Shown: positions 25,508 through 49,868 of the stretch, in pieces
How the letters are laid out: every line of letters begins with the position of its first letter
Numbering within the stretch: position 1 is the first letter of the stretch
Assembly (NCBI GenBank): GCA_963664395.2
Contig: OY761159.2
Span: forward strand, 192,001 to 256,000
Direction of reading: 5' to 3'
DNA from: Candidatus Binatia bacterium
GTDB taxonomy: Bacteria; Desulfobacterota; Binatia; Bin18
DNA: 64,000 nt
The notes under the pieces: generated by a model
Told to the model about the DNA's origin: nothing
The model's input: the letters and a program-made list of their open reading frames with translations, nothing else
Databases searched by the model: none
Made by a program: the position numbers and the translations under genes

Positions 25508-25625
25508 AACCTCTGGGCTTCAGCATCAGGGCCAGATACAACCTCCCTCATGGCGGATTTCATAATGCCTACGCAGATCACGAACAGGAATGAAATGAGA
25601 CACCAAGAAAGGCTTGCCAATACCG

Positions 25626-28466
25626 ATGCCTGAGCAGCGTAATCGTGAAGAGGTCGTCAATACACAACTTGCGGTGCTGATCTCAACGCTCGGCGTCACC
25701 GCCGACGCGGAAACCATTCTCCTGCACGGCACGCACCGGCCCGATGTGTTGTTCCAGCTCCGTGGCCTGCGCGTGGTCATCGAAGGCAAGTTTGCCGATG
25801 TGCCGAACGCCGAACGGGTCGTGCTGGACGATGCCCGCAATCGCGTACGCGCCGGTATTGCCCACATCGCCGCAGCGACGGTCTATCCCGCCCAGCTTCG
25901 CTCCACGCCCACCGCCAAGATGCTCGACACGCTGGCCGGGGCGCGCTTGCGCTTCTGTATTCTGACCGAGACCTCCGAGGACGACGAGTGGTTTGAGGGC
26001 AATCCAGCCGCGCTGATGGAATCCCTGCGCCGGGCGCAAGAAGCATTGAGTCAAGATGATATCGTTGAGCGGACAGCTAAAGCGCTGCATGGCCGCCTGG
26101 TCAGCGTTACTCAGCTCTGGCTGGGCCAAACAGGGGCGTGTGACCGCCTGTCAAACATTCTCGGTATCACGCCGCCAAAAGGCGAGACACCAGACAAAGC
26201 CCAAGGCAGGCGCGAGACAGCAGCCAAGGTCTCGGCCCTGGTGCTGGCCAATGCGCTGATTTTTCAAGAACAGTTGGCGCTGACGGATGGCCGGATCACC
26301 CCGCTACGCAAAATTGAAAAGGAAGCCGATTTAGTCGGAGCTATTGCGAAACATTGGCGCTGGATATGGGAGAACATCAACTATGTGCCGATTTTCCAGC
26401 TCGGTGAACGAGTGCTGGATGAACTTCCGAGTGCGCTCAGCACCACGCAGGCCGTTAGCGCAGTGCTCTCACAAGCGAAAGCAATTTGCGAGAAACAGGC
26501 AGCCCTACGCCACGACCTGATGGGGCGTATCTATCATTGGTTGCTGCATGAAGCGAAATATCTCGGCACCTATTACACTTCGGTGCCAGCAGCTACCCTG
26601 CTGCTCAAACTGACCCTGTCGGCGCACTGGAAACAGGACTTGGGCGACCCCGCGGAATTGGCTCACTTCAAGGTGGCTGACTTAGCCTGCGGAACGGGGA
26701 CGCTGCTAATGGCCGCAGCCCAGGCATTCTCCGACGAGTACATCAGAACGCGCGCGGCCTCAGACCGGCCGTTGGGGCAACGTGAGCTTTCGACGCTGCA
26801 TAGAACCCTGATGGAGAATATGTTGCACGGCTATGACGTGCTGCCCTCAGCCGTTCACCTGACTGCATCCACCTTGGCCCTGCTCGCCCCGGATATTGCG
26901 TTTGTTCGGATGAATCTGTTTGTGATGCCGCTCGGCGTTGATCAGGGGCGCGCGCGTCTGGGCAGCCTGGATTTTCTCGACAGCAGAGAACTCAAAACAC
27001 AGATGGCGCTCGACTATTCGCAGATTGAGACCATCCGTACCGGTGCCTCGATGTCTCGGGAAACGAACGCCACACTGCCCAAGCTACACTTGTGCGTGAT
27101 GAACCCGCCCTTTGTCCGCAGCGTGGGCGGCAACCTGCTCTTCGGCTCTCTGCCGGATGAACGGGGCCTGCTGCAAAAGGACCTCAAGAAGCGGGTCAAG
27201 CACTTATCTGCGAGCGTCACGGCAGGTCTCGGTAGCGTGTTTGTTGCCCTGGCCGACAAGCACTTGGAGGTCGGCGGGCGGCTGGCGTTTGTGCTGCTGG
27301 CGGCGTTGGCTTCGGGCGAAGCCTGGGGACCGACGCGCAAGCTGCTCGCCGAGAGCTACCACTTGGAGACCGTGGTTTCGAGCCACGACGCCGAGCGGCC
27401 CAACTTCTCAGAAAACACCGACCTGTCCGAATTATTGTTCATCGCCCGCAAGCTCGGCAGCGGCGAAAAGCCGGGCAGAGTGACTTGCATCAGCCTGTGG
27501 CGCAACCCGCGCTCAATTCATGAAGCTATGCACTTGGCGAACGCGATTGAGAACACTCCCAAGGTGGCAACCATTGAAGGAGCCGGCATAACGAGCGTGC
27601 GTTCATCGGACGGGAAATTGGCTGAGATGCTGTCTACTCCTGCCGCGATCAGTGAGGAGATTTGGCATGGAGCGCTCATATCGCAGGCCGAACTGTTGCG
27701 AACCTGTTGGAACCTCCAGCATGGGGTTCTGAGGGTTCCTGGGAACGATACCGAATTTACGCTTCCGACGTGCTGGCTTCGTCAACTCGGTGGCCTTGGC
27801 TATGATCGACGCGATATCCATGACGCATTTGAAGTATCGTATGACGATTGGTCTCCCTACCCTGCATTTTGGGGTCACGATGCTAAAGCCGTCATAAGCA
27901 TTGCTCAGTCTTCCAACGCCAGGCTGCTCGCACGAACCGCTCCAGCAAAAGGGCGCAAACTGAAGAGTGCGTCAGCGGTCTATACAGGAGCAGGTCGAAT
28001 ACTTCTCGTCGAGAGATTATGGCCTATCACCCAGTCCGTTTTGGCAGTGGGATTTGAGGAGAAAGTTCTCGGCAACACGTGGTGGGCTTTCAACGACTCG
28101 CAGTTTGATGAGCCGCAACGGAAGACCTTGCTCTTGTGGCTCAATTCTACCCTGAGCCTGCTCTTTTATTACGGACGGCGGACGGTCACGCGGAATGCCT
28201 GGATGCAGATGAAAAAGCCAGCCTGGGAGTCAATGCCGGTCCTTGATGTACGGAGTCTCACGCAAGAACAACTCACAACGCTTGCCAACGCCTATGACGC
28301 GGTAGCCTCGAAATCGCTCGCCCCGCTGGCGCAATTGGATGACGACCCGGTTCGTATCAGCATTGATGAGGCCCTGTGTACCGTTCTCGGACTGCCCTCA
28401 CTTGCGCCGGTCCGCGCCCTACTCGCCCGTGAACCGGGACTGACCGGGCGGAAGATTGGGGTGTAG
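25626..28466 (+). CDS. Single-chain restriction-modification enzyme (Type IIG-like): PD-(D/E)xK nuclease plus amino-methyltransferase
   Basis: N-terminal RPDV...VIEGK; GTYYT; motif I DLACGTGTLL; motif IV NPPF. Confidence 0.85.
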   Translation: MPEQRNREEVVNTQLAVLISTLGVTADAETILLHGTHRPDVLFQLRGLRVVIEGKFADVPNAERVVLDDARNRVRAGIAHIAAATVYPAQLRSTPTAKMLDTLAGARLRFCILTETSEDDEWFEGNPAALMESLRRAQEALSQDDIVERTAKALHGRLVSVTQLWLGQTGACDRLSNILGITPPKGETPDKAQGRRETAAKVSALVLANALIFQEQLALTDGRITPLRKIEKEADLVGAIAKHWRWIWENINYVPIFQLGERVLDELPSALSTTQAVSAVLSQAKAICEKQAALRHDLMGRIYHWLLHEAKYLGTYYTSVPAATLLLKLTLSAHWKQDLGDPAELAHFKVADLACGTGTLLMAAAQAFSDEYIRTRAASDRPLGQRELSTLHRTLMENMLHGYDVLPSAVHLTASTLALLAPDIAFVRMNLFVMPLGVDQGRARLGSLDFLDSRELKTQMALDYSQIETIRTGASMSRETNATLPKLHLCVMNPPFVRSVGGNLLFGSLPDERGLLQKDLKKRVKHLSASVTAGLGSVFVALADKHLEVGGRLAFVLLAALASGEAWGPTRKLLAESYHLETVVSSHDAERPNFSENTDLSELLFIARKLGSGEKPGRVTCISLWRNPRSIHEAMHLANAIENTPKVATIEGAGITSVRSSDGKLAEMLSTPAAISEEIWHGALISQAELLRTCWNLQHGVLRVPGNDTEFTLPTCWLRQLGGLGYDRRDIHDAFEVSYDDWSPYPAFWGHDAKAVISIAQSSNARLLARTAPAKGRKLKSASAVYTGAGRILLVERLWPITQSVLAVGFEEKVLGNTWWAFNDSQFDEPQRKTLLLWLNSTLSLLFYYGRRTVTRNAWMQMKKPAWESMPVLDVRSLTQEQLTTLANAYDAVASKSLAPLAQLDDDPVRISIDEALCTVLGLPSLAPVRALLAREPGLTGRKIGV

Positions 28467-30036: not shown

Positions 30037-30453
30037 TTATCTTGCTTCTCTACTCTCGAATGGATTCAATATGTCCACACCAAGTTGGGCAAAATCGTTG
30101 ACGTTACGAGTCACGACGATCAGTCTGTGAACCACGGCTGTCGCTGCGATCATGGCATCCTCCATCAAGGCGTCCGATCGGCGGTGCTTGAGTCGAGCCC
30201 ATACTCGAAAGGCAGCCGCGTCCATCGGTAAGATGTTGTAGGAAGCGAGCACCCGGCTAAGCCAAGCTTCCAATTCTTCCGCCTTGGTAGAATCCTGCTC
30301 GCGGGTGATCTCAATACCTGCCTGGATCTCTCCTATGGTCACCACGGAGAGGAAAAGCTGGTCGGCGTCTACCCCCGAGAACCAATTCAGAACACTCTGA
30401 TGCGGCTTGGGACGGCGCAGTTCCGAAACGACATTCGTGTCAAGAAGATACAC
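30037..30453 (-). CDS. vapC: PIN-domain toxin (VapC family)
   Basis: MYLLDTNVVSE, DAMIAATA, VTRNVNDF. Confidence 0.92.
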   Translation of the reverse strand: MYLLDTNVVSELRRPKPHQSVLNWFSGVDADQLFLSVVTIGEIQAGIEITREQDSTKAEELEAWLSRVLASYNILPMDAAAFRVWARLKHRRSDALMEDAMIAATAVVHRLIVVTRNVNDFAQLGVDILNPFESREAR

Positions 30454-30457
30454 CGGC

Positions 30458-30718
30458 TTACTCGAAGCTCGACAACCTACGGTGACGGCGTTTCTCTCGC
30501 GGCGGTGTCAGGGCATCGGTCCGTGCCTCGGGTGCGAGGAGCAATTCTTTGAGATCGGGCCTGGTCATCTGCTCTAACCGCCGCCACTGATCAATTGGGA
30601 CCAGAACCGCCGCCGCTACCCCCCGTTTGGTCACGATTTGCGGCCCTTCGGCAAGGCTCGTTTCAAGGAATTCGCTGAACCGCGCCCTCGCGTCCTGTAC
30701 CTGCCATGTTTTGCTCAT
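30458..30718 (-). CDS. Phd/YefM family antitoxin
   Basis: WQVQDARARFSE, GPQIVTKRG...AVLV; directly upstream of the PIN toxin. Confidence 0.92.
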   Translation of the reverse strand: MSKTWQVQDARARFSEFLETSLAEGPQIVTKRGVAAAVLVPIDQWRRLEQMTRPDLKELLLAPEARTDALTPPREKRRHRRLSSFE

Positions 30719-35019: not shown

Positions 35020-36261
35020 ATGGGGAAAGCTTTGAGCGGCATCCGTATTCTCGACATGACCCACGTCCAGATGGGGCCTTCTTGCACCCAGATTCTCGCC
35101 TGGCTCGGCGCGGACGTCATCAAAGTTGAACTGCCGGGTCGGGGCGATATCACCCGCCAGCAGCTCCGGGACCTGCCTGATGTCGATAGCCTGTATTTCA
35201 CCATGCTCAACTGCAACAAGCGCAGCATCACCATCAACACCAAGACCCCGAAAGGGCAGGCTATTTTCCGCAAGCTGATCGAGGTGTGTGACATATTGGT
35301 CGAAAACTTTGCGCCTGGCGCGCTGGACCGACAGGGGTTCAGTTGGGAGGCTATCCGGGAGATCAATCCGCGTATGATTTATGCCTCCGGCAAGGGGTTC
35401 GGCCCCGGTCCGTTCGCAGACTGCAAAGCCTACGAGACCGTCGCCCAAGCCATGGGGGGTGCTATGAGCACGACGGGCTGGGACGACGGCCCGCCGACCA
35501 GTACGGGAGCCCAGATTGGAGATTCCGGAACTGGCATTCATCTGGTCGCCGCTATTCTGGCGGCCCTCTTTCAGCGCGAGAAAACCGGAGGCGGGCAGCG
35601 GGTCGAGGTCGCCATGCAGGATGCGGTGCTGAACCTGTGCCGCGTCAAGCTGCGCGACCAGCAGCGACTTGCCCACGGGCCCTTGAAGGAATATCCGCAA
35701 TATCCCGATAAGCCCTTTGGCGACGCAGTGCCGCGCTCCGGCAACGCCTCCGGCGGCGGCCATCCGGGGGTCGCCCTCAAATGTAAGCCCGGCGGCCCCA
35801 ACGACTACATCTATGTGGTTGTCCAGGCCCAGGTCTGGAAGCCGCTGATGAAGCTCATCGGCCGTGAGGACCTCGTCGACCATCCGGAGTACGCCACACC
35901 GGAGGCCCGCCTTTCACACCTGAACGACTGTTTCACAGTTATCGAAGAATGGACCCAACAACACACCAAATACGAAGCAATGCAACTCCTCAACACGGTC
36001 AACGTGCCCTGCGGCCCGGTCCTGGACATGAAAGAGTTGATGGAGGATGAGTCGCTGACTGCGCGGGGCATTGTGGCCGAAGTCGAGCATCCGCAACGCG
36101 GGTCATTCAAGACGGTCGGCTGCCCGCTGAAGCTCTCCGATTCACCAGTCGAAGTACAGACCTCGCCCCGCCTTGGCGAGCATACCGAGGAAATCCTTCG
36201 GGAGCTTGTCGGCTACGGTGACAAGGAGGTCGAGGCAGCGCGGGCTGAAGGCGCGGTCTGA
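35020..36261 (+). CDS. frc: Formyl-CoA transferase
   Basis: [55 protein letters not shown]. Confidence 0.9.
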
Positions 36262-36316
36262 CAGGTGTCGCAAAACCTCCCTCGCTCTTGATCCGCTCAG
36301 CTTCCAGTCAAAACAT

Positions 36317-37882
36317 ATGTCACTCATTACCTGGTCGTGGATCTTTCTCATCATCTATATCGGGGCCATGCTGGCCATCGGCGTCTTCGCCCAACGACGG
36401 GTCAAGCACGCTGACGACTTTGCCACTGCGCGCGGCTCGTACGGACCGTTGTTTCTCGCGCTGGCCTTTGCCGCCACAACGGCCAGCGGCGCAACCTTCC
36501 TCGGGGCGCCGGGTCTGAGCTACGAGTGGGGGTTGCCCACGGTCTGGGGCAGCTTTCTGTACCCGACCGGCGTGTATGTCGGCGTGTTGGTCGCCATGCG
36601 CCTGATTACTACCTCGGGCCATCGGTTTGGGAACCGCTCCATACCGGAATACCTCGGCGACCGCTACCAATCCGATGGCATTCGGGTCCTCATCTCAATC
36701 TTTTCATTAGTGTTGTTTTTCTATCTGGCCGGCCAGTTGGTGTCCGGGCTCGTGATGTTCGAGATTATGCTGGGCTTGTCACCACTGTGGGCGCTGCTCA
36801 TCACCACCTCAGTGTTGTTGATTTATGTCGTGCTCGGCGGCGCGCATGCCGACATCCTGACGGATGGGGTTCAGGGGTTCATGATGCTGCTGGTCGCGGT
36901 GGTGGTCATCGTACTCTTTCTGACCGGCTTTGGTGTAGACGGCGGAAGAGCAGGCATGCTGGGCATTATCGACCGCCTCGCCGAGCAGGACGCGCACCTG
37001 GTCGGCACGCTCAATGCCGAGACCGCCCTCTACCATTCCTGGTGGTCAATTGTCGCCATTTTTATTTCACACATACCGCTCGGCCTGCTCCCCCATCTCG
37101 GGAATAAACTCTGGGCCTTAAAGGACGTGAGCCAGCAGAAAACGTTTATCAAGCTGGCATTCACGTTTGGGCTGACGCTGGGCATGCTCGGGTTGGGCGG
37201 TCTCCTCGCCCGCGCGCTATTTGGCGATGCACTCTACGCGGCTGGGGCGAATCCGAATCAGGCCCTCCCCCTCCTCTTCATCGAGTTGTTTCCAACCTGG
37301 CTCGCCGCCCTCATTGGGGTTGGCGTTCTGGCGGCGATCATGTCGACCGCCGACGGCCTGGTCATCTCCTCATCCCAAGTGATTGCCAACGATCTCTACC
37401 GTCGGACCATCGTACCTCGACTCAAGAATCCTCCGAATGCTGAGCAACTTGACCGGCGGATTTTAGCCATCAGCCGGGTGTCTACCGTCGTTGTGCTGTT
37501 TATTTGTGCCGCCTTAGCCTGGGCCTTAGTCGAGACCAACATCGCGCTCATTGTCTGGATCGGGAACGGGGGCATGATGGCGGCCTTTGCCGGTCCCTTA
37601 GTGGTCGGTGCGCTCTGGCGCGGCGTCACCCGCACAGGAGCCTATGCCGGTCTGGTCAGCGGCTTCGTCACCTTCCTGGTGCTGCATACCCAACTGCTTG
37701 ACCCCGCATGGTTCGGGCCTGGCACAACTCACGATGTCGTGGCTTGGCTCCACGCCGAAGGCCCCAGCCCCTTCTCCTGTGCGACGCTGGGAGAGCTCGC
37801 GTCAGTCGGCTTTACGTATGCGGTATCCAAACTGACCCAGCCGTTACCCGAGTCGCATGTGAAGGCGTTGTTTGAGTCTTGA
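36317..37882 (+). CDS. Sodium:solute symporter (SSF), copy 1
   Basis: ASGATFLG.PG, SIPEYLGDRY, LTDGVQG, LAAIMSTAD; multiple TM segments. Confidence 0.9.
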   Translation: MSLITWSWIFLIIYIGAMLAIGVFAQRRVKHADDFATARGSYGPLFLALAFAATTASGATFLGAPGLSYEWGLPTVWGSFLYPTGVYVGVLVAMRLITTSGHRFGNRSIPEYLGDRYQSDGIRVLISIFSLVLFFYLAGQLVSGLVMFEIMLGLSPLWALLITTSVLLIYVVLGGAHADILTDGVQGFMMLLVAVVVIVLFLTGFGVDGGRAGMLGIIDRLAEQDAHLVGTLNAETALYHSWWSIVAIFISHIPLGLLPHLGNKLWALKDVSQQKTFIKLAFTFGLTLGMLGLGGLLARALFGDALYAAGANPNQALPLLFIELFPTWLAALIGVGVLAAIMSTADGLVISSSQVIANDLYRRTIVPRLKNPPNAEQLDRRILAISRVSTVVVLFICAALAWALVETNIALIVWIGNGGMMAAFAGPLVVGALWRGVTRTGAYAGLVSGFVTFLVLHTQLLDPAWFGPGTTHDVVAWLHAEGPSPFSCATLGELASVGFTYAVSKLTQPLPESHVKALFES

Positions 37883-37959
37883 ATAAGTTTCGAGGATAGA
37901 TATACAGGCCATCTGAACTGACACGGCGTAAAAAGTTACAGGGGGAAAGCGGCAGTCAT

Positions 37960-38265
37960 ATGGCAAGTGGGATAAGAATAGGCATTCAGATCGTTAAGGC
38001 TATCGATCGCGCTCACAGACAGTCTCTACGAGAGGCTGAGAGAAGACGCAAGGCTGAGGAAAGGGAAGCCGCACGTCAACAACGAGAGCGCGCGCGTTTG
38101 CTGAAACAGCAAGAGCGTGAGAGAGCAGCTTACGAGCGAGCACAAGCAGTTACAGAGAAAAATAGGTTTAAGCAGAGTCTAGAAAACGCTCAAGCAGCTT
38201 TCGATATGAGATGTCGAGAGCGGAAAATCCTTCGTGAATCAATAATCAATGAGGTTCTAAAATAA
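37960..38265 (+). CDS. Small coiled-coil hypothetical protein, co-oriented 11 bp upstream of the DUF4041 nuclease
   Basis: 101-aa ORF, amphipathic N-terminus then an E/R/Q/A-rich helix. Confidence 0.7.
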   Translation: MASGIRIGIQIVKAIDRAHRQSLREAERRRKAEEREAARQQRERARLLKQQERERAAYERAQAVTEKNRFKQSLENAQAAFDMRCRERKILRESIINEVLK

Positions 38266-38276
38266 GGTAGAGAACA

Positions 38277-39704
38277 GTGGATGCTCAGTATATTGCGGGA
38301 ACGCTGGTAGTCTTATCCTTTTCCATCATCGCAACTTACTTCTTAGTTCGTAATAAATTTAAGAAGCAGATTGTAGAATACCGCTCCATCTCCGATGCGA
38401 TCGCGGAGACCGCTCAGAAACTGACTCGAACTGAAACAGAGCTTACCGAAGCCCAGGGACGACTTGAGACTGTTAGAGACGAAACAAGGGAGCTTCAAGA
38501 CCTCAAGGAGAACGCCGGGCAACTTAAGGCCCAACTGGAAGAGTCATCAAAGCAGCTCGAAGAGATATCCGTCGATATTGAATCCAAAGAAGATAGACTG
38601 GACACCCTGGACGAGCAGCTTCACCAATTAATGTCAAAAGTTGACCTCTATTCTAGAGTCGACGAATTTGTCGAGCATGGCCTATTCGAAGAGCCGGAGT
38701 ATCTATTTGAAACCACAGATCGCTTCGTTGAAGAAATCAAACGAACCCGCGAGAAGCAAAAAGAACTGATCAAGAATAAAGAAGCCCTTACTTTTCCTAG
38801 TTCTCTTACCATTTCATCAGATAAAAGGCAGGACAAGAAAATACTAGAAGGCCAAGTCAAACTCATATTGACTGCTTTTAATATTGAGTGCGATCTTCTT
38901 ATCGGCAAGGTTAATCCTGGTAATTTTGCGCGTACTTTAGAGCGCATTGAGAAGCTGGCGGCTACGCTCGAAAAATCTGCGGCTACTCTGCATTGCGGGT
39001 TCAACATTGAATTTGTTCGACTAAAATTCGAAGAATGTAGGCAGCAGTATCAATTCAAACTGAAGAAGCAGGAAGAACAAGAAGAGCAACGCTTGATTCG
39101 TGAGCAGATGCGCGAGGAGCAAAAAGCGATCAAAGAATATGAACGCGCATTGGCCCAGGCGGAAAAGGAGGAGCGTCTATACCGCGACATGCTTGAGAGG
39201 GCCCGCAATGAACTTGAGCAGGCTACTGCAGATGATCGCCTTATCACAGAACAACGGATTGCCTACCTTGAGAGACAACTTGCAGAAGCTGAGGCAAAAG
39301 AGGAGCGTGCCAAGAGCATGGCTGAACAGACGCGTCGTGGCCATGTCTACATCATAAGCAATTTAGGCTCATTCGGTGAAAACGTATATAAAATTGGCCT
39401 TACTCGCCGTCTAGATCCTTTAGATCGAGTGAAAGAGCTTGGCGATGCAAGTGTGCCCTTCTCTTTTGACGTTCATGCCCTAATCTACTCGGATGATGCC
39501 CCGGCACTTGAAACGGCTTTGCATCGTGAGTTCGCTCATAAGCGAGTTAACGCAGTAAACCTCCGTAAAGAGTTTTTTCGTACTGATATTACAGCCATAA
39601 AAGAAGCGGCTGAAAAAATAACCAACGGAGAAGCTGACTTTAGGCTGACTGTGGCGGCGGAAGAATATTATGAATCTAGACGTCTACAGGGAGTAGAGAC
39701 GTAG
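38277..39704 (+). CDS. Membrane-anchored DUF4041 + T5orf172 (GIY-YIG-like) nuclease; SNIPE/PD-lambda-1-like
   Basis: N-terminal TM, coiled coil, LILTAFNIECD, KKQEEQEEQRLIREQMREE, GHVYIISNLGSFGE.VYKIGLTRRLDP.DRV.ELGDASVPF.FDVHA...RKEFF. Confidence 0.85.
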   Translation: MDAQYIAGTLVVLSFSIIATYFLVRNKFKKQIVEYRSISDAIAETAQKLTRTETELTEAQGRLETVRDETRELQDLKENAGQLKAQLEESSKQLEEISVDIESKEDRLDTLDEQLHQLMSKVDLYSRVDEFVEHGLFEEPEYLFETTDRFVEEIKRTREKQKELIKNKEALTFPSSLTISSDKRQDKKILEGQVKLILTAFNIECDLLIGKVNPGNFARTLERIEKLAATLEKSAATLHCGFNIEFVRLKFEECRQQYQFKLKKQEEQEEQRLIREQMREEQKAIKEYERALAQAEKEERLYRDMLERARNELEQATADDRLITEQRIAYLERQLAEAEAKEERAKSMAEQTRRGHVYIISNLGSFGENVYKIGLTRRLDPLDRVKELGDASVPFSFDVHALIYSDDAPALETALHREFAHKRVNAVNLRKEFFRTDITAIKEAAEKITNGEADFRLTVAAEEYYESRRLQGVET

Positions 39705-39712
39705 AGTACAAA

Positions 39713-39733
39713 AGAGGCTTTTCGGAGCCTTCT
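39713..39733 (+). terminator. Possible terminator hairpin after the DUF4041 gene
   Basis: aggctt-ttcg-gagcct with a UUCG tetraloop; weak U tract. Confidence 0.45.
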
Positions 39734-39756
39734 ACTACCTTCTGGACTTTCAGCAT

Positions 39757-39820
39757 GAGACTCAGTTAGGCGTACATGGGTTTCGGTGCCACACTGCACG
39801 AGAAAGGAATCCGATATGAA
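39757..39820 (+). repeat. 64-bp promoter/RBS module, copy B
   Basis: gagactcagttaggcgtaca...cacactgcacgagaaagg...atatgaa; about 10 differences in 64 nt from 43115-43177. Confidence 0.85.
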
Positions 39821-40658
39821 CTCGACCCATAAACCGGTCGCCGTCGTGGTGGGAGCAACATCCAAGTGGCAGTCAGATGGCCGCAATACCAAACTCGCGC
39901 ACGGTAAGGTGATCGACGACAGCGATATGCCCGTCGGTGCGCGCTGGGGCATCGGCGGTGCCGTAGCTCAGAAGTTTGCCAAAGAGGGCTTCTTCGTCGT
40001 GTTGACGACCCGGAATGCCGCCAATGCGTCTGGGTTGGAGCAGGCAATCCGAGAGCAAGGTGGCGAAGGCATGATTGTCGAGCTGGACCTAGTGTCGCAC
40101 GACTCCATATCACAGGCGTTCGCCCAGATTCGAGAGCAAGCCGGTGACCCGAATGTCTTGGTCTACAACGCGGGCTACCTGGAGGGGCGTGACCTGCCGC
40201 CAGAGAAAGAATTGCTTGAACACATCCCGGTCGAACTATTTGACACCGCGCAGCACATCTCCAGCCGAGGACCGTTCTTAGTCGCCAAGGAGGTATTGCC
40301 CGCCATGCGAGAGCGAGGCGCAGGCTCTTTCCTCATTTCTAATAACGCGGCGGCCTTGCGCGGACGCAAGCGACTGACAGGACAGTCGTTGTACTATCCG
40401 AGAGTGATGATGCGCACGCTGGCGCAGGTGCTGACGGAGGAATATTCCGAGCATGGCGTACACGTGGCCAACGTCGTGATAGACGGCCTCATCGACTCTC
40501 CAGGCACCCGCGCCCTGCCGATAGCCCGGCAGCGGCCTGAAGTGGTGATGAATCCCGTTAAGATCGCTGAGGCGTACTATTATCTACACACCCAAGACAA
40601 ATCCTGTTGGACGCACGAACTCCAATTGACTCCATTTCCGACCAAGCCGAGCTTTTAA
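39816..40658 (+). CDS. Short-chain dehydrogenase/reductase (atypical)
   Basis: VAVVVGA...GIGGAVA (interrupted Gly loop), LVYNAG, HVANVVIDG.ID, WTHEL. Confidence 0.85.
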   Translation: MNSTHKPVAVVVGATSKWQSDGRNTKLAHGKVIDDSDMPVGARWGIGGAVAQKFAKEGFFVVLTTRNAANASGLEQAIREQGGEGMIVELDLVSHDSISQAFAQIREQAGDPNVLVYNAGYLEGRDLPPEKELLEHIPVELFDTAQHISSRGPFLVAKEVLPAMRERGAGSFLISNNAAALRGRKRLTGQSLYYPRVMMRTLAQVLTEEYSEHGVHVANVVIDGLIDSPGTRALPIARQRPEVVMNPVKIAEAYYYLHTQDKSCWTHELQLTPFPTKPSF

Positions 40659-40679
40659 GAGCGTCAACTTAGGACAGAC

Positions 40680-40925
40680 GCTTATGCCGGTCTGGTCAGC
40701 GGTTTCGTCACCTTCCTCGTGCTACATACCCAAATGATTGATCCCGCTTGGTTTGCGCCCGGCCTGCTGCACACCGCCGCCGCCTGGCTGCACGCCGAAG
40801 GCCCCAGCCCCTTCTCCTGCGCGACGCTGGGGGAACTCATGTCAGTTGCCTGTACCTATGTCGTATCTAAAGCAACGCAGCCACTGCCCGAGTCACATGT
40901 GAAGGCGTTGTTTGAAGGGACGTAG
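40680..40925 (+). pseudogene. Isolated 3' end (81 codons) of an SSF symporter; direct repeat of 37640-37882
   Basis: AYAGLVSGFVTFLVLHTQ...PLPESHVKALFEGT*, colinear with copy 1 at an offset of exactly 3040 nt; no 5' part. Confidence 0.92.
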
Positions 40926-40993
40926 GCTGCGGTTGCGGAAGGACGGCTTCTTTACTGGATTGTGAACTGCCCAGTGATAGGTTAGTCCGACAC

Positions 40994-41017
40994 CTGGATT
41001 TGGTCGATTACCATTAG
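40994..41017 (+). pseudogene. 3' tail remnant of a HigB toxin
   Basis: ctg gat ttg gtc gat tac cat tag = LDLVDYH*, the typical HigB C-terminus, immediately before higA. Confidence 0.6.
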
Positions 41018-41029
41018 GAGGACCATGAC

Positions 41030-41311
41030 GTGCCAATGAAGAACCCACCCCATCCGGGCCTGTCCGTGCGCCACGATTGCCTTGAGGCTCTGGGACTCAA
41101 TGTATCAGAGGCGGCGCGCAAGCTTGGTATCAGCCGTACGCAGCTTTCAGATATCGTGAATTGCCGCTCCGGCATTTCGCCTGAAATGGCGATCCGTCTC
41201 GACAAGGCGTTCGGCGCCGCCGCCGAGACTTGGTACCGGCTTCAATCCTCCTACGAACTGGCCCAGGCAAAGCTATCGCCTATCGTGAAACGCTCTAGCT
41301 TCTTCTTTTAG
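41030..41311 (+). CDS. higA: HigA family antitoxin (orphan; atypical C-terminus)
   Basis: [22 protein letters not shown]....[13 protein letters not shown]. Confidence 0.9.
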
Positions 41312-41321
41312 GTATATCTTC

Positions 41322-43082
41322 ATGTCGATCACGTCTGTTCGTTTCTGGAATTTCAAGGCGCTCAGAGACTACTCCGTCTCTCTTCAACAAATGAATATTC
41401 TTGTTGGGCCCAATAACTGTGGAAAGTCAACAATGTTGAGCGCATTCCGCGTTCTTGAACAAGCCATGAGAACGGCAGGTTCACACCGCGCAATTCGCGT
41501 TCCAACTCATACGGGGAATCAGACAGACGGTCACATCATCCCTGAGTCAGCCGTACCGATCCCGATGGAAAACGTACATTCTGATTATACAGACGAAGAC
41601 AGCCGTATCGAGTTTCGTTTCTCGAACGCAAACAAGCTCTTTCTCTTCTTCCCCGCCAGTGGTGGATGCATTCTCTATTGGGATGTAATAGGCAAACCCA
41701 TTGCAACGCCCTCTGCGTTCCAGCGATCATTCCCGATTCAAGTACAAGTTATTCCAGTACTTGGCCCTATTGAGCAAGAAGAGCAAATTGTCACGGATGA
41801 AACAGTTCGACGGGCATCTGGTACGCCCCGGGCAAGTCGGCATTTTCGCAATTATTGGTATAAGAACCCCGATGGCTTTGAACGGTTTCAGTCTCTGGTC
41901 GAGCAGACTTGGCCAGAAATGTCCATCGGCCGCCCGGAGCGCACCTCCTTACTGGACAGTCAACTTGTCATGTTTTGTTCGGAAGACCGTAGGGACCGTG
42001 AACTCTACTGGGCAGGACTTGGATTTCAAGTTTGGTGTCAGTTATTGACTCATGTGTCACGCTGTAGCGGGTCTGATCTTTTAGTTGTTGACGAGCCTGA
42101 AGTTTATCTACACCCGGATGTCCAGCGTCAGTTGCTTGGAATTCTGAGGGATGTTCAGCCTGACGTTGTTCTCGCAACTCATTCAACTGAAATTATAGGA
42201 GAAGCCGACCCAAGTGAAATACTCCTGGTCGATAAGACTAGACGTTCTGCAAAACGCCTTCGAGATGTCGAAGAGGTTCAACAAGCTCTTGATGTCATTG
42301 GATCTATTCAAAACATTACTCTGACTGAACTTGCAAGAAACCGAAGGCTTCTCTTTGTCGAAGGGCTAAATGACTACAAGATTATTCGACGCTTTGCCAG
42401 GAATGTTGCCCTAACCGACTTGGCTTCCGGGAACGGCATCACTGCGTTGGAATCGGGAGGCTTCTCTTCGTTGTCCCGTGTCCAAGCACTTGCGTGGGGG
42501 TTCCGGAAAACACTAGGTACTGAGCTGAAAGTGGCTGCGATATATGATCGGGACTATTGGTGTGATGAGGAAATCAATGAGTTGGTCAGTTCTCTTAATA
42601 CCGAAATTCAGTTTGCCCATATCCATCAGAGAAAAGAAATTGAAAACTATCTCCTTATCCCCGCTGTTCTCGAAAGAGTAGTAATACGTCTAATTACCGA
42701 GAAGGCAAGGCAAAATGGGATTGATGAAGTTTCCCAAGTGAACGTCATGGACCTTCTTGCATCCCTTACTAATGAGACCAAAACAGATTGCCAAGGCCAA
42801 TACGTAAGCCGATATTGCGAATATCATCGAAACAGCGGACGCGACCAAGCAACGTTGACTTCCGAAGCCCTTTCCCGATTTGAAAGCAAATGGACAATGC
42901 TGGACACAAGAATGATTTTGGTTCCAGGCAAAAAAATCCTGAAGACATTTAGGCAACGATGCCAATCAGAATGGGGTATCACACTTACAGATATTCGCCT
43001 CATTGACGGCTTTCAGAAAGAGGAGATACCTTCGGATCTTATAGAGCTTCTTGCGGCTTTAAATGCTTATAGAGGAGACTAG
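41322..43082 (+). CDS. ABC-type ATPase + TOPRIM nuclease (OLD-family-like)
   Basis: NFK, Walker A GPNNCGKS, Walker B LVVDEPEVYLHP, ATHS; TOPRIM FVEG..D, DRD, KEIENYL. Confidence 0.85.
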   Translation: MSITSVRFWNFKALRDYSVSLQQMNILVGPNNCGKSTMLSAFRVLEQAMRTAGSHRAIRVPTHTGNQTDGHIIPESAVPIPMENVHSDYTDEDSRIEFRFSNANKLFLFFPASGGCILYWDVIGKPIATPSAFQRSFPIQVQVIPVLGPIEQEEQIVTDETVRRASGTPRASRHFRNYWYKNPDGFERFQSLVEQTWPEMSIGRPERTSLLDSQLVMFCSEDRRDRELYWAGLGFQVWCQLLTHVSRCSGSDLLVVDEPEVYLHPDVQRQLLGILRDVQPDVVLATHSTEIIGEADPSEILLVDKTRRSAKRLRDVEEVQQALDVIGSIQNITLTELARNRRLLFVEGLNDYKIIRRFARNVALTDLASGNGITALESGGFSSLSRVQALAWGFRKTLGTELKVAAIYDRDYWCDEEINELVSSLNTEIQFAHIHQRKEIENYLLIPAVLERVVIRLITEKARQNGIDEVSQVNVMDLLASLTNETKTDCQGQYVSRYCEYHRNSGRDQATLTSEALSRFESKWTMLDTRMILVPGKKILKTFRQRCQSEWGITLTDIRLIDGFQKEEIPSDLIELLAALNAYRGD

Positions 43083-43114
43083 GGAGCGTTGCCGGTTTCT
43101 TCAGAGTGTTGACG

Positions 43115-43177
43115 GAGATTCAGTTAGGCGTACACGATTTCCGATGCTACACTGCACGAGAAAGGGCTCCATATGAA
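43115..43177 (+). repeat. 64-bp promoter/RBS module, copy B'
   Basis: gagattcagttaggcgtaca...tacactgcacgagaaagg...atatgaa; contains an extended -10-like TGcTAcacT. Confidence 0.85.
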
Positions 43178-43400
43178 AGATCAAGGCGTTGTCGTGCATA
43201 GTGACCCTGATATTCTCGGTGGAACTCCCGTCTTTATGGGGACACGGGTTCCGGTAAAAGCGCTCCTGGACTACTACGCTGGGGGACATACCTTGGATGA
43301 CTTTCTTGACGACTTTCCTACAGTAACACGCGCGCAGGCAATGACGGTCTTGGAGCAGGAGGGGCAGTTGCCGGCAGGTGCCCATGCGCGTTCTGCTTGA
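43173..43400 (+). CDS. DUF433 family antitoxin
   Basis: DPDILGGTPVF.GTRVPV..L.DY...G..LD.FL.DFP. Confidence 0.9.
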   Translation: MKDQGVVVHSDPDILGGTPVFMGTRVPVKALLDYYAGGHTLDDFLDDFPTVTRAQAMTVLEQEGQLPAGAHARSA

Positions 43401-43701
43401 CGAGTGTGTCCCCCGGAAAATTCGAGGCGAGTTGCCAAGCCATGACGTGCAGACCGTCGCCGAGGTGGGCTGGGGAGGCACAAAGAATGGAGCGTTGCTC
43501 CGCCGAGCCGCCTCGGAGTTCGATGCCCTGCTGACCGTAGACCAAGGAATCCCATATCAACAGAATATCGGGGGCCTCTCTCTGGCTTTGATCATCATCA
43601 AAGCACCGAGCAATGACATCAACGACTTGCGACCCAAGATGGCCGAGGTGCTACGAGTGCTGGAAACGATTCAGCCTGGCCAAGTGGTACAGGTTGCCTA
43701 A
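43384..43701 (+). CDS. DUF5615 PIN-like toxin
   Basis: MRVLLDECVP, HDV.TV, W.G.KNG.LL, FD.LLT.D; overlaps the DUF433 gene. Confidence 0.85.
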   Translation: MRVLLDECVPRKIRGELPSHDVQTVAEVGWGGTKNGALLRRAASEFDALLTVDQGIPYQQNIGGLSLALIIIKAPSNDINDLRPKMAEVLRVLETIQPGQVVQVA

Positions 43702-43839
43702 CCACACGCTCTAGCCGTTCACATCCCTGTCCCATCTCAGCGGCTTCTTTCTGCGGCATGAACAAAGAGGCATTGCTGTATGGTCGGCTAACCGTGTAGT
43801 AAGAATGAAATCGAAAGTCCGGCCAAGAGGAGGGTTTAC

Positions 43840-44268
43840 ATGTCAGAACTGGAAAAACGAATCACCCGGCTCGAAGACATTGAAGCGATAAAGCAGCTCA
43901 AGGCTCGCTACTGCGAAATCTGCGACGATATGCACAACCCCGACAGAGTCGCGTCGGTATTCGTTGAAGATGCCATCTGGGAAAGTGCGGATTTCGGCAA
44001 AGCCGAGGGCCATGACGCTATTCGCGAATTATTTCGCAACTTCCAAAGAACGTTCAGCTTTTCTCAGCACAACATTACGAACCCAATAATCGAGGTCAAC
44101 GGAGATCGCGCCACAGGCATCTGGTACATCATGGGTCCGTGGACGTATGCCGAAAATGACGATGAGAAATGGTTGGCGCTGCGCTATGACGACGACTACG
44201 TGAAAGTAAACGGTGAGTGGAAGTATCAACACTTACGGGTGGCCCTGCGGATGACTGCCGACCGATAA
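43840..44268 (+). CDS. SnoaL/NTF2-like protein
   Basis: RLEDIEAIKQLKARY, H...NP.I.V.GD.A.G.W, Y.DDY....GEW. Confidence 0.88.
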   Translation: MSELEKRITRLEDIEAIKQLKARYCEICDDMHNPDRVASVFVEDAIWESADFGKAEGHDAIRELFRNFQRTFSFSQHNITNPIIEVNGDRATGIWYIMGPWTYAENDDEKWLALRYDDDYVKVNGEWKYQHLRVALRMTADR

Positions 44269-44421
44269 GAGGACTCCGTCAAGAGACAGGGTCAATCGGC
44301 AACGTGAGACCCTGTGCGCATAGGGTCGGTCCTGTGAAGACCAGCCACTCTGACCCATCAGTGCCGCAGAATTGATGCGGAATCCCCAGATGCCCTTTTG
44401 GACTTGTAAGGAGCCCTGCCC

Positions 44422-45999
44422 ATGACACTCGTTAGCTGGTCGTGGTTCTTCCTCGTCATCTATATCGGCGGCATGTTGACCATCGGGGTTGTGGCCCAGC
44501 GGCGCGTGAAACACGCCGACGACTTTGCCACCGCGCGTAGCTCCTACGGCCCCCTGTTTCTGGCCCTGGCGTTTTCCGCCACCACCGTCAGCGGGGCAAC
44601 CTTCCTGGGTATGCCGGGACTGAGCTATACCTGGGGGATAACCACGATGTGGGGCGTCTTTCTGGGCCCCGCCGGCCTATGTGTGGGCATGTTGCTCACC
44701 ATGCGTTTGATTACCAGAGCTGGCCACCGGTTCGGCAACCGCTCCATACCCGAGTACCTCGGCGACCGCTACCAATCCGAAGGTATTCGCGTGCTGGTGT
44801 CGCTGTTTTCCCTGTTGTTGTGTTTCTATCTGGCCGGGCAACTCGTGTCCGGGCTGGTCATGTTCGAGATTCTGCTGGGTGTACCGCCGTTCTGGGCGCT
44901 GCTCATCACCACCACCGTACTGTTGATTTACGTTGTACTGGGCGGGGCGCATGCCGACATCATCGCCGACGGTGTCCAGGCCTGCATGATGCTGCTGGTC
45001 GCCGTGGTGGTCATCGTGCTGTTTCTCCTCGGCTTCGGGCTGGAGGTGGGAGAATCGGGCAGAAGCGGGTACTTGGGTCTGGTCGATAATCTGGCCGCCC
45101 AGGATGAACACCTGGTTGGCCTGCTCAACACCAAAACCCCGCTCTATCACTCCTGGTGGTCGATTGTCTCGCTTATGATTGCGTTCATTCCACTGGGCGT
45201 GCTGCCCCACCTGGGGAATAAACTCTGGGCCTTAAAAGGGACCACGCACCAGAGTCGCTTTCTTGGCCTCACGATCGCCTTCATCGTCACGCTGGCCATG
45301 CTGACCTTGGGTGGTCTGCTGGCCCGGGCGCTGCTGGGCAACGCACTATTTGCCGAAGGGGCGACCTCGAATCACGCCCTGCCCACGCTCTTCATCGAGC
45401 TGTTTCCGACCTGGCTGGCGGCGCTCGTCGGGGTTGGCGTGCTGGCCGCCATTATGTCCACCGCCGACGGGCTGGTGGTGTCCTCGTCCCAAACGATCGC
45501 CAACGACCTCTACCGCCGGACCGTGGCTCCGCGATTGAAGCATCCGCCAACCGAAGAACAGCTCGACCGACAGGTCTTATACATCAGCCGGGTGGCAACA
45601 GTTGTCGTTCTCGTAATCTGTGCGGCCATCGCCTGGGCGTGGGTTGAGACCAACGTGATGCTGATTATCTGGATAGGCACCGGCGGCATCATGTCGGCAT
45701 TTGCCGGTTCCCTGGTATTCGGGGCTCTGTGGCGCGGGGTCACCCGGCCCGGGGCCTACGCCGGCCTGGTCAGCGGCTTTGTCTGCTTTCTGGTTTTGCA
45801 CACCCAACTGCTTGACCCGGCCTGGTTTGCCCCCGGCCTGCTGCACTCCGTCGTCTCCTGGCTCTATATCGAGGGCATCAATCCGTTCTCCTGCTCGTCC
45901 ATCGCCAGCCTTACCTCGGTTGCCTTCACCATCATCGTCTCCAAAGCGACCCGGCCCCTGCCCGAGTCGCACCTCCGGGCGGTGTTCGAGGGCGTGTAA
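44422..45999 (+). CDS. Sodium:solute symporter (SSF), copy 2
   Basis: Close paralog of 36317-37882 with long identical stretches (AQRRVKHADDFATAR, LFIELFPTWLAAL). Confidence 0.9.
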   Translation: MTLVSWSWFFLVIYIGGMLTIGVVAQRRVKHADDFATARSSYGPLFLALAFSATTVSGATFLGMPGLSYTWGITTMWGVFLGPAGLCVGMLLTMRLITRAGHRFGNRSIPEYLGDRYQSEGIRVLVSLFSLLLCFYLAGQLVSGLVMFEILLGVPPFWALLITTTVLLIYVVLGGAHADIIADGVQACMMLLVAVVVIVLFLLGFGLEVGESGRSGYLGLVDNLAAQDEHLVGLLNTKTPLYHSWWSIVSLMIAFIPLGVLPHLGNKLWALKGTTHQSRFLGLTIAFIVTLAMLTLGGLLARALLGNALFAEGATSNHALPTLFIELFPTWLAALVGVGVLAAIMSTADGLVVSSSQTIANDLYRRTVAPRLKHPPTEEQLDRQVLYISRVATVVVLVICAAIAWAWVETNVMLIIWIGTGGIMSAFAGSLVFGALWRGVTRPGAYAGLVSGFVCFLVLHTQLLDPAWFAPGLLHSVVSWLYIEGINPFSCSSIASLTSVAFTIIVSKATRPLPESHLRAVFEGV

Positions 46000-46240
46000 G
46001 TCAATGAGGTATACCCGCACCTGGCATATTGACGCGTCGAAAGAAATACAAGTTACTCTTCTACAATGAGCATTCCGGCAATGAGTTGATCTGGACAGCT
46101 CAGACCCCAAGTCAGGAGTTGGATGAAGTGGAACGGGAGCCAGGGTTCCACTGTTTCGGTTGTGGAAAGGCGTAACAGGTTATACTATCTGCCGACACAG
46201 AGAACAGATATCGCCGCACACTACACTGAGGACAAACACT

Positions 46241-46888
46241 ATGCTGAAAATCTACGGTACGACCCTGAGCAATTATTACAGCACGGCCAAGGCCGCCTTG
46301 GTCGAAAAAGGACTCGCGTTCGAGGAAGTCTCGGTCATGCCGAGCCAGAAACCCGAAGTCCTGGCCAAAAGCCCCATGGGCAAGGTGCCCTACATTGAGA
46401 TCGAGGGCACGACCTTGAGCGAGACCAACGTCATCTTCGACTATCTCGAAGATATCCAGCCGCAGCCGGCGCTGTATCCCAGCGACCCCTGGGCCAGGGC
46501 CAAAACCAAAGAACTCATCCGCGTTGTCGAGTTGTATCTCGACACACCGGCGCGGCGCCACCTGCCCACCGTGTACTTCGGCGCACCGGTTGACCAGACC
46601 GCATATGACGAAGTCCTGCCTGCGCTGGAAAATGGACTGCGGGCATTCAAGCACCTCGTCCGCTTCGAGCCCTATATCGCCGGCGACACGTTTACGTTTG
46701 CTGATATCGCTGCCTATTTTCAGGTGCGATTTACCAACTTGCATACCACCACAGTCTATGAGCGGGACATTACGGATGAAGTGCCGGGCCTGGGCGGGTA
46801 CTTGAAAATGGTCGGCGGACGTCCGTCTATCGACGCCGTTGATTCCATCTTGCAAAGAGATTTCGCAGCCTTCAAAAATAAGAGCTGA
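46241..46888 (+). CDS. Glutathione S-transferase family protein
   Basis: SNYY...K.AL.EKG, SPMGKVP, LSET..I..YLE, FTFAD. Confidence 0.9.
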   Translation: MLKIYGTTLSNYYSTAKAALVEKGLAFEEVSVMPSQKPEVLAKSPMGKVPYIEIEGTTLSETNVIFDYLEDIQPQPALYPSDPWARAKTKELIRVVELYLDTPARRHLPTVYFGAPVDQTAYDEVLPALENGLRAFKHLVRFEPYIAGDTFTFADIAAYFQVRFTNLHTTTVYERDITDEVPGLGGYLKMVGGRPSIDAVDSILQRDFAAFKNKS

Positions 46889-49207: not shown

Positions 49208-49431
49208 TGGAATACAAAGGCTATATTGGGCACGTTGAGTTTGATGACGAAGCGGATGTTCTCCACGGCGAAGTTATCAACATTCGGGATGTCGTCACAT
49301 TTCAAGCGACCTCTGTCGAAGATATCCATAATAAAGCATTTCGAGAATCCGTTGATGACTATATCGAATTCTGTAAATCTCGGAATGAAGTGCCTAATAA
49401 ACCGTTAGCAGCGGCAGTCGCCGAGCAATGA
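49204..49431 (+). pseudogene. hicB: HicB antitoxin, truncated before the DNA-binding domain
   Basis: MEYKGY.G.VEFD.EA...HGEV....DVVTF, AFRESVDDY; ends just after KP where the SG-RHH domain normally follows. Confidence 0.75.
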
Positions 49432-49448
49432 GAATGAGGGGTGCCGAA

Positions 49449-49868
49449 ATGGGAGAGATTACAGTCAACGTTACGCTTGAAAACCCGATTGATCGCGGCG
49501 TTTTTGAGCGAGGAGAGGGCGAGGAAGACGCCATTAGGCATTCCAGCATTGACGCGATTGTCGATACCGGAGCGGTCATGCTGGTTTTACCGCAAAACGT
49601 AGTTGAGCGGCTCGGACTGGAAATCCGCCGAACCGTTATTGCTTCCTATGCAGACGAGCGGAAGGAAGAACATCCGGTAGCCGGTCCGCTGACCATCCGC
49701 ATTGGCAACCGTTTTATGAGCACCGATTGCATTGTCGGTCCTCCTCTGAGTGAGCCGTTGATCGGCCAAATCGTCCTCGAAGCCCTGGATTTAATCGCTG
49801 ATTGTACAAACCGCACCCTCACCCCACGGCCCGAGTCGCCGGACTATCCGCTGTTGAAGCTCAAATGA
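49449..49868 (+). CDS. Clan AA aspartic protease (retropepsin-like)
   Basis: AIVDTGA, PLIGQIVLE.LDL. Confidence 0.85.
   Translation: MGEITVNVTLENPIDRGVFERGEGEEDAIRHSSIDAIVDTGAVMLVLPQNVVERLGLEIRRTVIASYADERKEEHPVAGPLTIRIGNRFMSTDCIVGPPLSEPLIGQIVLEALDLIADCTNRTLTPRPESPDYPLLKLK

Follow-up and report, generated by a model that had tools for sequence, protein, structure and literature searches.

A 64,000-nucleotide stretch of the genome of a Candidatus Binatia bacterium (contig OY761159.2, positions 192,001 to 256,000; hereafter the window) contains a locus in which two pairs of direct repeats interleave as A, B, A' and B' around genes related to phage defence and toxin-antitoxin (TA) systems. A first-pass annotation had described this arrangement, and both pairs proved real in a repeat finder and a pattern search. 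The conserved left flank of the slot is the sodium:solute symporter gene SSF1 (36173..37882; Pfam SSF, 3.2e-46), and to its left lie ProRS on the minus strand and then a CoA transferase gene, syntenic in 16 fetched genus loci and 5 more. Relatives of SSF1 align only from residue ~43-49 onward, so its true start probably lies later than 36173. Repeat A (37634..37882), delimited by the repeat finder and by identity comparison, is the working SSF1 3' end. It is followed by cc101 (37960..38265), an open reading frame (ORF) for a charged coiled-coil protein of 101 amino acids, and by the gene for a 475-amino-acid homologue of PD-lambda-1, or SNIPE (38277..39704; PADLOC PD-Lambda-1, Pfam DUF4041 and T5orf172/MUG113). 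Repeat B (39757..39820) is a copy of a DUF433 operon leader with its ribosome-binding site, fused to the start codon of an SDR oxidoreductase gene (39816..40658; Pfam adh_short, 1.1e-22) that stands between the two cargo units.

Beyond SDR, the native downstream sequence passes at an unstranded joint (40661..40684) into SSF1 ~250 nucleotides before its stop codon, across a microhomology of 10 of 11 nucleotides. Repeat A' (40674..40925) is an orphaned native SSF1 3' end with an open frame of 88 amino acids. Next come a higB stump (40926..41029) in which only the last few toxin codons are recognizable, a gene for a HigA-family helix-turn-helix antitoxin (41030..41311; TIGR02607) whose native C-terminal tail has been replaced from 41269 on, and a gene for a predicted OLD-family ATPase-nuclease of 586 amino acids (41322..43082), which is a single low-GC gene inserted between higA and the DUF433 leader. 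Repeat B' (43115..43177) is the native leader of the DUF433-DUF5615 operon. DUF433 (43173-43400; Pfam DUF433, 3.3e-17) lies directly 3' of B' and forms a putative TA pair with DUF5615 (43378-43701; Pfam DUF5615, 1.8e-5), which encodes a PIN-like protein. A SnoaL-like gene and then the symporter paralogue SSF2 (43840..45999) make up the conserved right flank. Apart from the joint, all features from SSF1 to SSF2 are on the plus strand.

The cargo is as first described, with a coiled-coil ORF and a DUF4041 nuclease gene in one unit and a broken higBA and an OLD-like gene in the other (Pfam, PADLOC and NCBIfam); the SDR gene between the units and the intact DUF433-DUF5615 pair after B' had been omitted. 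The reported AT-richness of both cargoes also holds (~46-47% GC versus 58-60%), with a GC content of 0.461 in the cc101-PD-lambda-1 block and 0.469 in OLD compared with 0.58-0.60 in the flanking genes. As had been noted, there is no recombinase nearby: a Pfam scan of the 64-kb window found none in 59 ORFs of at least 80 amino acids or in a few shorter ORFs of the locus, and the nearest of the five genome-wide matches to the tyrosine-recombinase family PF00589 is more than 1.3 Mb away.

Foreign and resident symporter ends

Repeat A is a foreign replacement of the SSF1 end, and A' is the displaced resident end. The two copies (37634-37875 and 40674-40915) are 81% identical over 242 nucleotides, with a longest exact run of 29 nucleotides and agreement at 41 of the first 43 positions. 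Only three copies of the symporter gene end exist in the 5.04-Mb source genome (G000; relatives are G001 and so on, and fetched loci carry L numbers), the third being the end of SSF2 (45748-45989), at 67% identity. Compared with the SSF1 ends of 16 relatives, A is 77-81% identical and A' is 86-91% identical, the latter on par with the backbone genes (84-92%). The drop in A is limited to ~37640-37840, with both sides at ~90% identity to G008 and G026. Relative to G021, A' has 19 synonymous and 1 non-synonymous change in a total of 20 differing codons, whereas A has 38 differing codons, 14 of them non-synonymous. Because nearly all its codon differences are synonymous, A' was part of a working gene until recently. 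The two copies disagree at 54 sites. At 37 of these, A matches at least one outgroup symporter gene, including a patch common to G010, and at 13 its state is unique. The divergence of A below the backbone level, its outgroup states and the lack of a donor copy in the genome together identify A as foreign and A' as native. The region of A' is also colinear with the SSF1 end-HigA arrangement in G021, G006 and G024.

Two other origins of A were ruled out: in situ hypermutation, as most of its special states are common to the SSF genes of other species, and gene conversion from the genome's own SSF2, as only the three end copies exist and the states of A are shared with other species.

Orphaned symporter ends recur in the family. 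A search of 55 family genomes with the last 83 residues recovered 12 orphan SSF 3' fragments, spread over 11 of the genomes. They include SSF1 and SSF2 types alike and always lie next to TA or defence cargo. Their left ends fall at residues 1-3, 7, 14-15, 28 and 43-44 of those 83. Newcomer and resident are indistinguishable in G023 and G002, whose two copies share 94-96% identity.

Repeat B is the leader of a TA operon

The B pair is shorter, with 84% identity between 39757-39812 and 43115-43170 and a longest exact run of 17 nucleotides. A 46-nucleotide degenerate pattern built from the two copies matched only B and B' in the window and nothing in 100 shuffles, and the genome contains no further copies. 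Long matches to B were found in 11 of 54 other family genomes, of which nine belong to this genus and two lie outside it. Each of the 11 matches terminates on the DUF433 start codon, including those in L037 and L042, which have no SSF or SDR gene nearby. Because B abuts the DUF433 start even there, it belongs to the TA module: it is the leader, with ribosome-binding site, of the DUF433-DUF5615 operon and not a fixed chromosomal anchor of the slot, as had been supposed. The native leader of SDR, ~90 nucleotides long, is conserved in all 15 relatives with SDR. In G000, B replaces it up to a common ribosome-binding-site motif (7 of 8 nucleotides) before the start codon.

We rejected a structured RNA at B, given fold z-scores of 0.18 (B) and -0.75 (B') relative to shuffled sequences and a weak consensus structure of 13 copies (-5.5 kcal/mol). 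Rfam had no match at E <=0.1 in 36000-46500. A simple scan found no sigma-70 promoter at B, and a possible -35/-10 pair was seen by eye only.

The slot is filled differently across the genus

To describe the slot in relatives, we fetched loci from 16 genus genomes and 5 more, mapped them by tblastn and blastn, and took a census of 22 genus genomes, including G000, in which SSF1 and its neighbour lie on one contig. The flanks (ProRS-CoA transferase-SSF1 on the left, SnoaL-SSF2 on the right) are conserved in the 16 loci fetched from the genus and in others besides. Of the 22 genomes, 6 have an empty slot or one shorter than 300 bp (G003, G004, G016, G018, G020 and G027), and 10 have only TA genes there (MazEF-like, HigBA or remnants). 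SNIPE and/or OLD are found in four (G000, G008, G019 and G026), and ORFs of no known kind fill the slot in the remaining two (G010 and G013). PADLOC gave no matches for 24 other unexplained slot proteins. A scan of 101 of the 156 ORFs from the 16 relatives' loci (55 short or overlapping ORFs were left out) revealed no integrase, and the only mobility genes in these loci are an IS630-like gene (G011) and an IS4/5 fragment (G021). The proposed hypervariable, recombinase-free slot is thus borne out. Two further slots, the gap between SDR and SnoaL and the space behind the SSF2 copies, vary in the same way, with DUF433/DUF5615, a cyclase gene, Phd/ParE and DUF4160/DUF2442 as content.

The two units stacked in the window occur separately in relatives. 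In G008 the order is SSF1-cc101-SNIPE-B-DUF433-DUF5615-SnoaL, colinear with window positions 37300-39820 at 89% identity. Relatives without SNIPE have SSF1-higB-higA, followed in G005 by B-DUF433, and the right half of the locus in G000 reads SSF1 end-higB stump-HigA-OLD-B'-DUF433. The modules [cc101-SNIPE] and [higBA with or without OLD] are therefore alternative fillings of the interval between the SSF1 stop codon and the B leader, and G000 holds both in tandem, in agreement with the earlier proposal. Recent exchange of a TA module is indicated by a MazEF cassette that reaches 96-100% identity between genomes with 88-95% identity in SSF1. A portable SSF end for this cassette was ruled out, as the rise in identity coincides with the stop codon instead of lying within the gene.

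The suggestion that the repeats could serve as anchors for harvesting defence genes was not supported. The intervals are variable, as expected; their content is mostly TA modules, with the same two defence genes in 4 of the 22 genomes. As TA modules and not defence systems are the main tenants, the anchors are of limited value for this use. A metagenome harvest with a 20-nucleotide motif from the SSF1 end was discarded: it returned 18 loci, none encoding an SSF relative, and these are chance matches.

Several other features of these loci were seen along the way. The 3.9-kb slot filling of G010 (L053 7529-11431) contains 11 ORFs with one Pfam match (a partial Exo_endo_phos), and in G010 the end of SSF1 is similar to the foreign A. 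In G019, a 338-amino-acid protein without a Pfam or PADLOC match (L035 5557-6573) lies between SSF1 and HigA-OLD, in the place of HigB; a protein atlas groups it with clusters of hypothetical proteins at a score of 0.97, and it is a candidate slot cargo. SSF2 is present in one to three tandem copies across the genus (L034-L050, downstream of SnoaL), and one copy is broken in G016 and in G019. G008 has no SDR gene, and several relatives have two B-DUF433 copies flanking SDR; recombination between such copies could have removed SDR from G008.

Both units carry members of known families

The 475-amino-acid protein of the first unit matches the PADLOC PD-Lambda-1 profile almost from end to end (E 3.8e-160; residues 9-471 against 8-473 of 491), and Pfam detects DUF4041 (1.4e-13) and the GIY-YIG-type T5orf172 (5.2e-16). 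Its layout is a putative N-terminal hydrophobic helix, seen by eye as a hydrophobic stretch at residues ~7-24 and a candidate for the membrane anchor expected of SNIPE, then a coiled coil, DUF4041 and T5orf172. PD-lambda-1 is the characterized nuclease SNIPE (PMC13190303), with which this protein shares its architecture as well as the full-length profile match. The activity that defines SNIPE is phage protection by cutting of DNA that the phage injects, and for the copy described here this is a predicted function. This copy differs in being chromosomal and preceded by the conserved cc101. This ORF has no Pfam, PADLOC or NCBIfam match and precedes the SNIPE homologue in all three genomes having SNIPE (the window, L033 8371-8691 and L040 12677-12979, the last on the minus strand), with amino acid identities of 75% in G008 and 95% in G026. 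Its product could be an accessory partner of this SNIPE lineage.

In the second unit, the higB stump spans at most 104 nucleotides and ends in the last few HigB codons, and an intact HigB is not present; G006 and G024 have intact HigB at the same place (Pfam HigB-like, 2.6e-14 and 1.9e-14). HigA scores 96.9 bits against TIGR02607 (cut-off 47.7). A comparison of tails with six relatives revealed that OLD replaces the last ~20 higA codons from 41268 onward in G000 and G019. The OLD-like protein matches the PADLOC profiles Old (5.3e-23), GajA (2.1e-23) and AriAB (9.1e-26) and the OLD structure PDB 6p74 (3.1e-7), and Pfam places AAA_21 (2.5e-23) and AAA_15 (1.2e-18) in its ATPase domain. Over residues 249-481 the protein can be aligned to 6p74 and, in the matching parts, to the profiles Old, GajA and AriAB, without a Pfam Toprim match, and all matches to OLD-family profiles are partial. 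The gene is 91% identical in DNA to that of G019, and the protein is 87.6% identical to that of G037. A protein search of genome contigs added one 49% relative, in a Chitinophagaceae metagenome-assembled genome, which is uninformative on the locus.

The protein thus has in common with P2 Old, GajA and Thermus scotoductus OLD (6p74) an N-terminal ABC-type ATPase and a C-terminal region aligning to the Old and GajA profiles. It differs in having no GajB, retron or PARIS partner and lying instead alongside a truncated HigA; the GajB helicase of Gabija is not adjacent, the neighbours of OLD being HigA and DUF433. The locus had been ranked as the best candidate for an undescribed system, a view that does not stand: PD-lambda-1 is the characterized SNIPE (PMC13190303), and OLD and HigA are known families.

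Joints around SDR

SDR is a single-copy gene whose DNA is 93-99% identical to that of relatives, compared with 84-92% for neighbouring genes, and the borders of the conserved segment are sharp (39800-40684). SDR itself may have passed between species by exchange or conversion. The region upstream of SDR has a 120-bp copy downstream of the gene in G034. The sequence downstream of SDR and the SSF1 sequence ~250 nucleotides before the stop codon have the 10-of-11-nucleotide microhomology in common, and G000 switches from one to the other exactly there. In G001, G019 and G023, SDR runs directly into the sequence at window position 43073, so 40681-43072 is an insertion relative to these genomes. 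The borders of the units are therefore microhomology joints, and homologous recombination alone, which had been named as the builder, cannot have produced the tandem.

G037, from another genus, carries SDR-SSF fragment-HigA-OLD on a 5.2-Mb contig, colinear with window positions 39803-43102 at 88% identity. A candidate HEC-01A/HEC-01B defence pair (L061 1638-3094; PADLOC 3.4e-158 and 1.1e-16) adjoins this block.

Assembled sequencing runs contain pieces of the stacked form as well as unstacked forms. Run X18, possibly from the source sample, has contigs that match the window without a difference over 36500-39887 (depth 5.3) and 40630-43892 (depth 4.7), and the second bridges the joint between SDR and A'. 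An unstacked joint from 40681 to 43761, with 158 other letters, occurs in X23 (depth 64) and X1 (depth 40.5), and one from 40680 to 43092 occurs in X20. In X23, a SNIPE-B-SDR contig has a depth of 29 and OLD contigs a depth of 2. SDR itself is collapsed in the run contigs to a depth of 240-590. Joints expected from deletion between A and A' or between B and B' were absent among those listed from four runs; contigs are blind to rare forms, and this absence is not evidence of stability.

Other genes of note in the window

Beyond the slot, a 950-amino-acid protein with an N6 DNA methylase domain and weak matches to type I/IIG methyltransferases (25614-28466) and a Phd/PIN TA pair (30037-30718) make up a second small defence/TA patch, 7-12 kb upstream. 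An HNH endonuclease ORF (56208-56954; 248 amino acids) and a retropepsin-like aspartyl protease ORF (49428-49868; 146 amino acids) lie amid metabolic genes.

How the stack may have formed

We consider it probable, if well short of certain, that two alleles of one slot were stacked here by a combination of homology-anchored and illegitimate recombination that displaced the symporter's 3' end. The stretch from SSF1 to SnoaL would be a hotspot without a recombinase, in which small TA and defence modules are gained, swapped and eroded. From the repeats, joints and allelic relations described above, we infer the order of events and the route of DNA entry as follows. An earlier deletion at a microhomology would have fused B to the start of SDR. 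DNA from a relative would have recombined by one homologous crossover, most likely in the 43-nucleotide conserved stretch at the left end of A, and one illegitimate joint at a microhomology. The incoming unit would have brought its own SSF1 3' end (A), keeping the symporter intact, and the resident end A' would have been pushed downstream together with its cargo. A parental allele of the form SSF1-HigA-OLD-B-DUF433, lacking SDR, would have taken part, and the low identity of the repeats would keep the stack stable. Homology-facilitated illegitimate recombination is one possible route, and a circularized fragment entering by a single crossover is the other. In E. coli, when circularized DNA integrates by a single crossover, 109-950 bp of the homologous locus become duplicated, and the microhomologies used in homology-facilitated illegitimate recombination are 3-10 bp long (PMC3240628).

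Several observations weigh against this account. Neither of the proposed parents is present whole in the reference genomes searched, and the form with SNIPE-B/SDR and no OLD is known solely from contigs and depth figures. The two halves are connected by 740 nucleotides of SDR that no single read or contig crosses in full. The point at which SSF1 changes from native to foreign and the left end of A' lie within ~45-80 nucleotides of each other, so close that a circular intermediate or a coincidence is needed. The joint in G037 differs, running from ~75 nucleotides after the SDR stop codon to ~165 nucleotides before the SSF stop codon, so the block must have a longer or repeated history. The MazEF cassette moves without an SSF end of its own, its identity jumping at the stop codon. 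The weakest point of the explanation is the clustering of orphan starts: all 12 orphans start 120-257 nucleotides before the stop codon, which random illegitimate joints do not predict. Loss of long direct repeats by recombination, together with a tendency of joints to form near the homologous anchor, may limit orphan size in this way.

An internal tandem duplication would explain some of these features differently. Unequal crossing-over at the microhomology between the SDR downstream region and SSF1 would have duplicated the segment [SSF1 end-cargo-SDR], and each cargo would later have been replaced by homologous recombination. A joint at a 10-of-11-nucleotide microhomology is typical of such an event. 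Working end and orphan are each other's closest match in G023 (94.0%) and G002 (95.9%), in G024 the SSF2-type orphan hardly differs from the gene end beside it, and the orders in G000 and G037 are a circular permutation of HigA-OLD-(DUF433 fragment)-SDR in G019. In G000, however, the copies are only 81% identical and A carries outgroup states; the cargoes share nothing, SDR is present once, and several extra replacement steps are required. For the locus in the window we therefore regard a duplication as unlikely.

About equally unlikely, in our estimation, is a more general version of symporter-end displacement, in which the conserved stretch ~200-260 nucleotides before the symporter stop codon is a reusable landing pad where defence and TA cassettes with surrogate symporter ends are stacked without a recombinase of their own, either by a general homology-anchored route or by a core-recognizing recombinase encoded elsewhere.

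Site-specific integration in the strict sense, with a recombinase acting in trans at a symporter core ~245 nucleotides before the stop codon and successive addition of cis-mobilizable, recombinase-less cassettes, seems to us very unlikely. It would account for the start of SSF1- and SSF2-type orphans in the same part of the gene, for the near-identity of the first 43 nucleotides of A and A', and for a wholly foreign A beside a wholly native A', which fits attL/attR logic. The left ends of the orphans nonetheless differ between genomes, the joint in G000 is explained by microhomology to the SDR downstream region, the cargo has no copy of the core at its right end, none of the 17 loci yielded an integrase, and the core is just the most conserved coding stretch.

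We also find little reason to believe that the assembly joined two co-occurring strains, each with one allele, through the conserved SDR gene, even though the high identity of SDR among relatives, its collapse to high depth uncrossed by contigs, the presence of other strains with other joints in the same samples and an estimated genome contamination of 5.4% all make such a chimera conceivable. Contig C1 exceeds 3.3 Mb, a length that suggests the use of long reads, to which 0.8 kb would be no obstacle; the X18 contigs on either side are identical to the window and have equal depths; the assembly contains one SDR and only two SSF bodies; and the independent 5.2-Mb contig of G037 has SDR-SSF fragment-HigA-OLD. 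An integron-like cassette array without an integrase, with B as carrier of the recombination core site, can be set aside: the genes are co-oriented, TA cassettes are frequent and a heptamer in B fits the integron core-site consensus, but there are no pairs of inverse-core and core motifs of that kind at a spacing of 47-145 nucleotides on either strand of 36000-46500 (1.6 expected), neither B nor B' folds better than shuffled sequence, the consensus structure is weak, and B always abuts the DUF433 start codon.

Relation to known hotspots

Stacking of alleles with displacement of the symporter end has relatives among known kinds of loci. The minimal mobile elements of Neisseria hold alternative contents between the same conserved flanks, swapped by homologous recombination without mobility genes; these classical elements replace one another, whereas the alternatives are stacked here. 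Orphan modules of rhs and contact-dependent inhibition loci are attributed to displacement of gene ends. An att-flanked, integrase-borne island at the 3' end of a gene differs from the present locus, which has no integrase and whose orphan left ends vary between genomes.

Among the core defence hotspots (cDHS) of P. aeruginosa, 29% and 47% of sites lack a mobility gene (PMC10250203), and TA islets of Photorhabdus without mobile-element genes are proposed to spread via recombination at flanking core genes (PMC13617665). As described in those reports, both resemble our locus in their conserved flanks, their variable, low-GC defence or TA content, the frequent absence of mobility genes and the proposed homologous recombination at the flanks. 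The locus in the window is much smaller (0.16-6 kb per slot, with three adjacent slots) and retains scars in the form of orphan gene ends and a duplicated operon leader. For effector-immunity arrays of the type VI secretion system in V. cholerae, and for rhs loci, a displacement model with homology-facilitated illegitimate recombination was put forward (PMC5361080). There, as here, a module arrives with the end of the upstream gene, the old end and its cargo are displaced, orphans are left behind and no recombinase is involved. In our case, however, the displaced gene is a housekeeping-type symporter and not a polymorphic toxin with an immunity gene, the cargo is not immunity to the displaced tip, and there is no obvious selection for keeping the orphan. 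The combination of one homologous and one microhomology joint also matches the reported integration events, whose duplications of 109-950 bp accommodate orphans of 120-257 nucleotides; those took place under laboratory conditions, in E. coli, S. pneumoniae, Acinetobacter and P. stutzeri, whereas here the process is read from scars (PMC3240628). Literature searches on displacement scars at defence hotspots brought up no title or opening part of an abstract on orphaned housekeeping-gene ends next to defence cassettes, which does not establish that such descriptions are absent.

The locus is thus a genuine case of a hotspot type already on record, in which genes are swapped without an integrase, and it reveals no new system or mobility mechanism. 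It adds a chromosomal SNIPE homologue with a conserved small ORF, and a pairing of HigA with OLD, to the candidates for functional tests. Were the landing pad to prove true, defence islands in uncultured bacteria would be built by a general homology-anchored route, or else the symporter core would be recognized by a recombinase whose gene lies elsewhere. As it stands, the locus is a clean natural record of how defence genes can become stacked without integrases or transposases, in which the resident end, the newcomer end and the joints can still be read.

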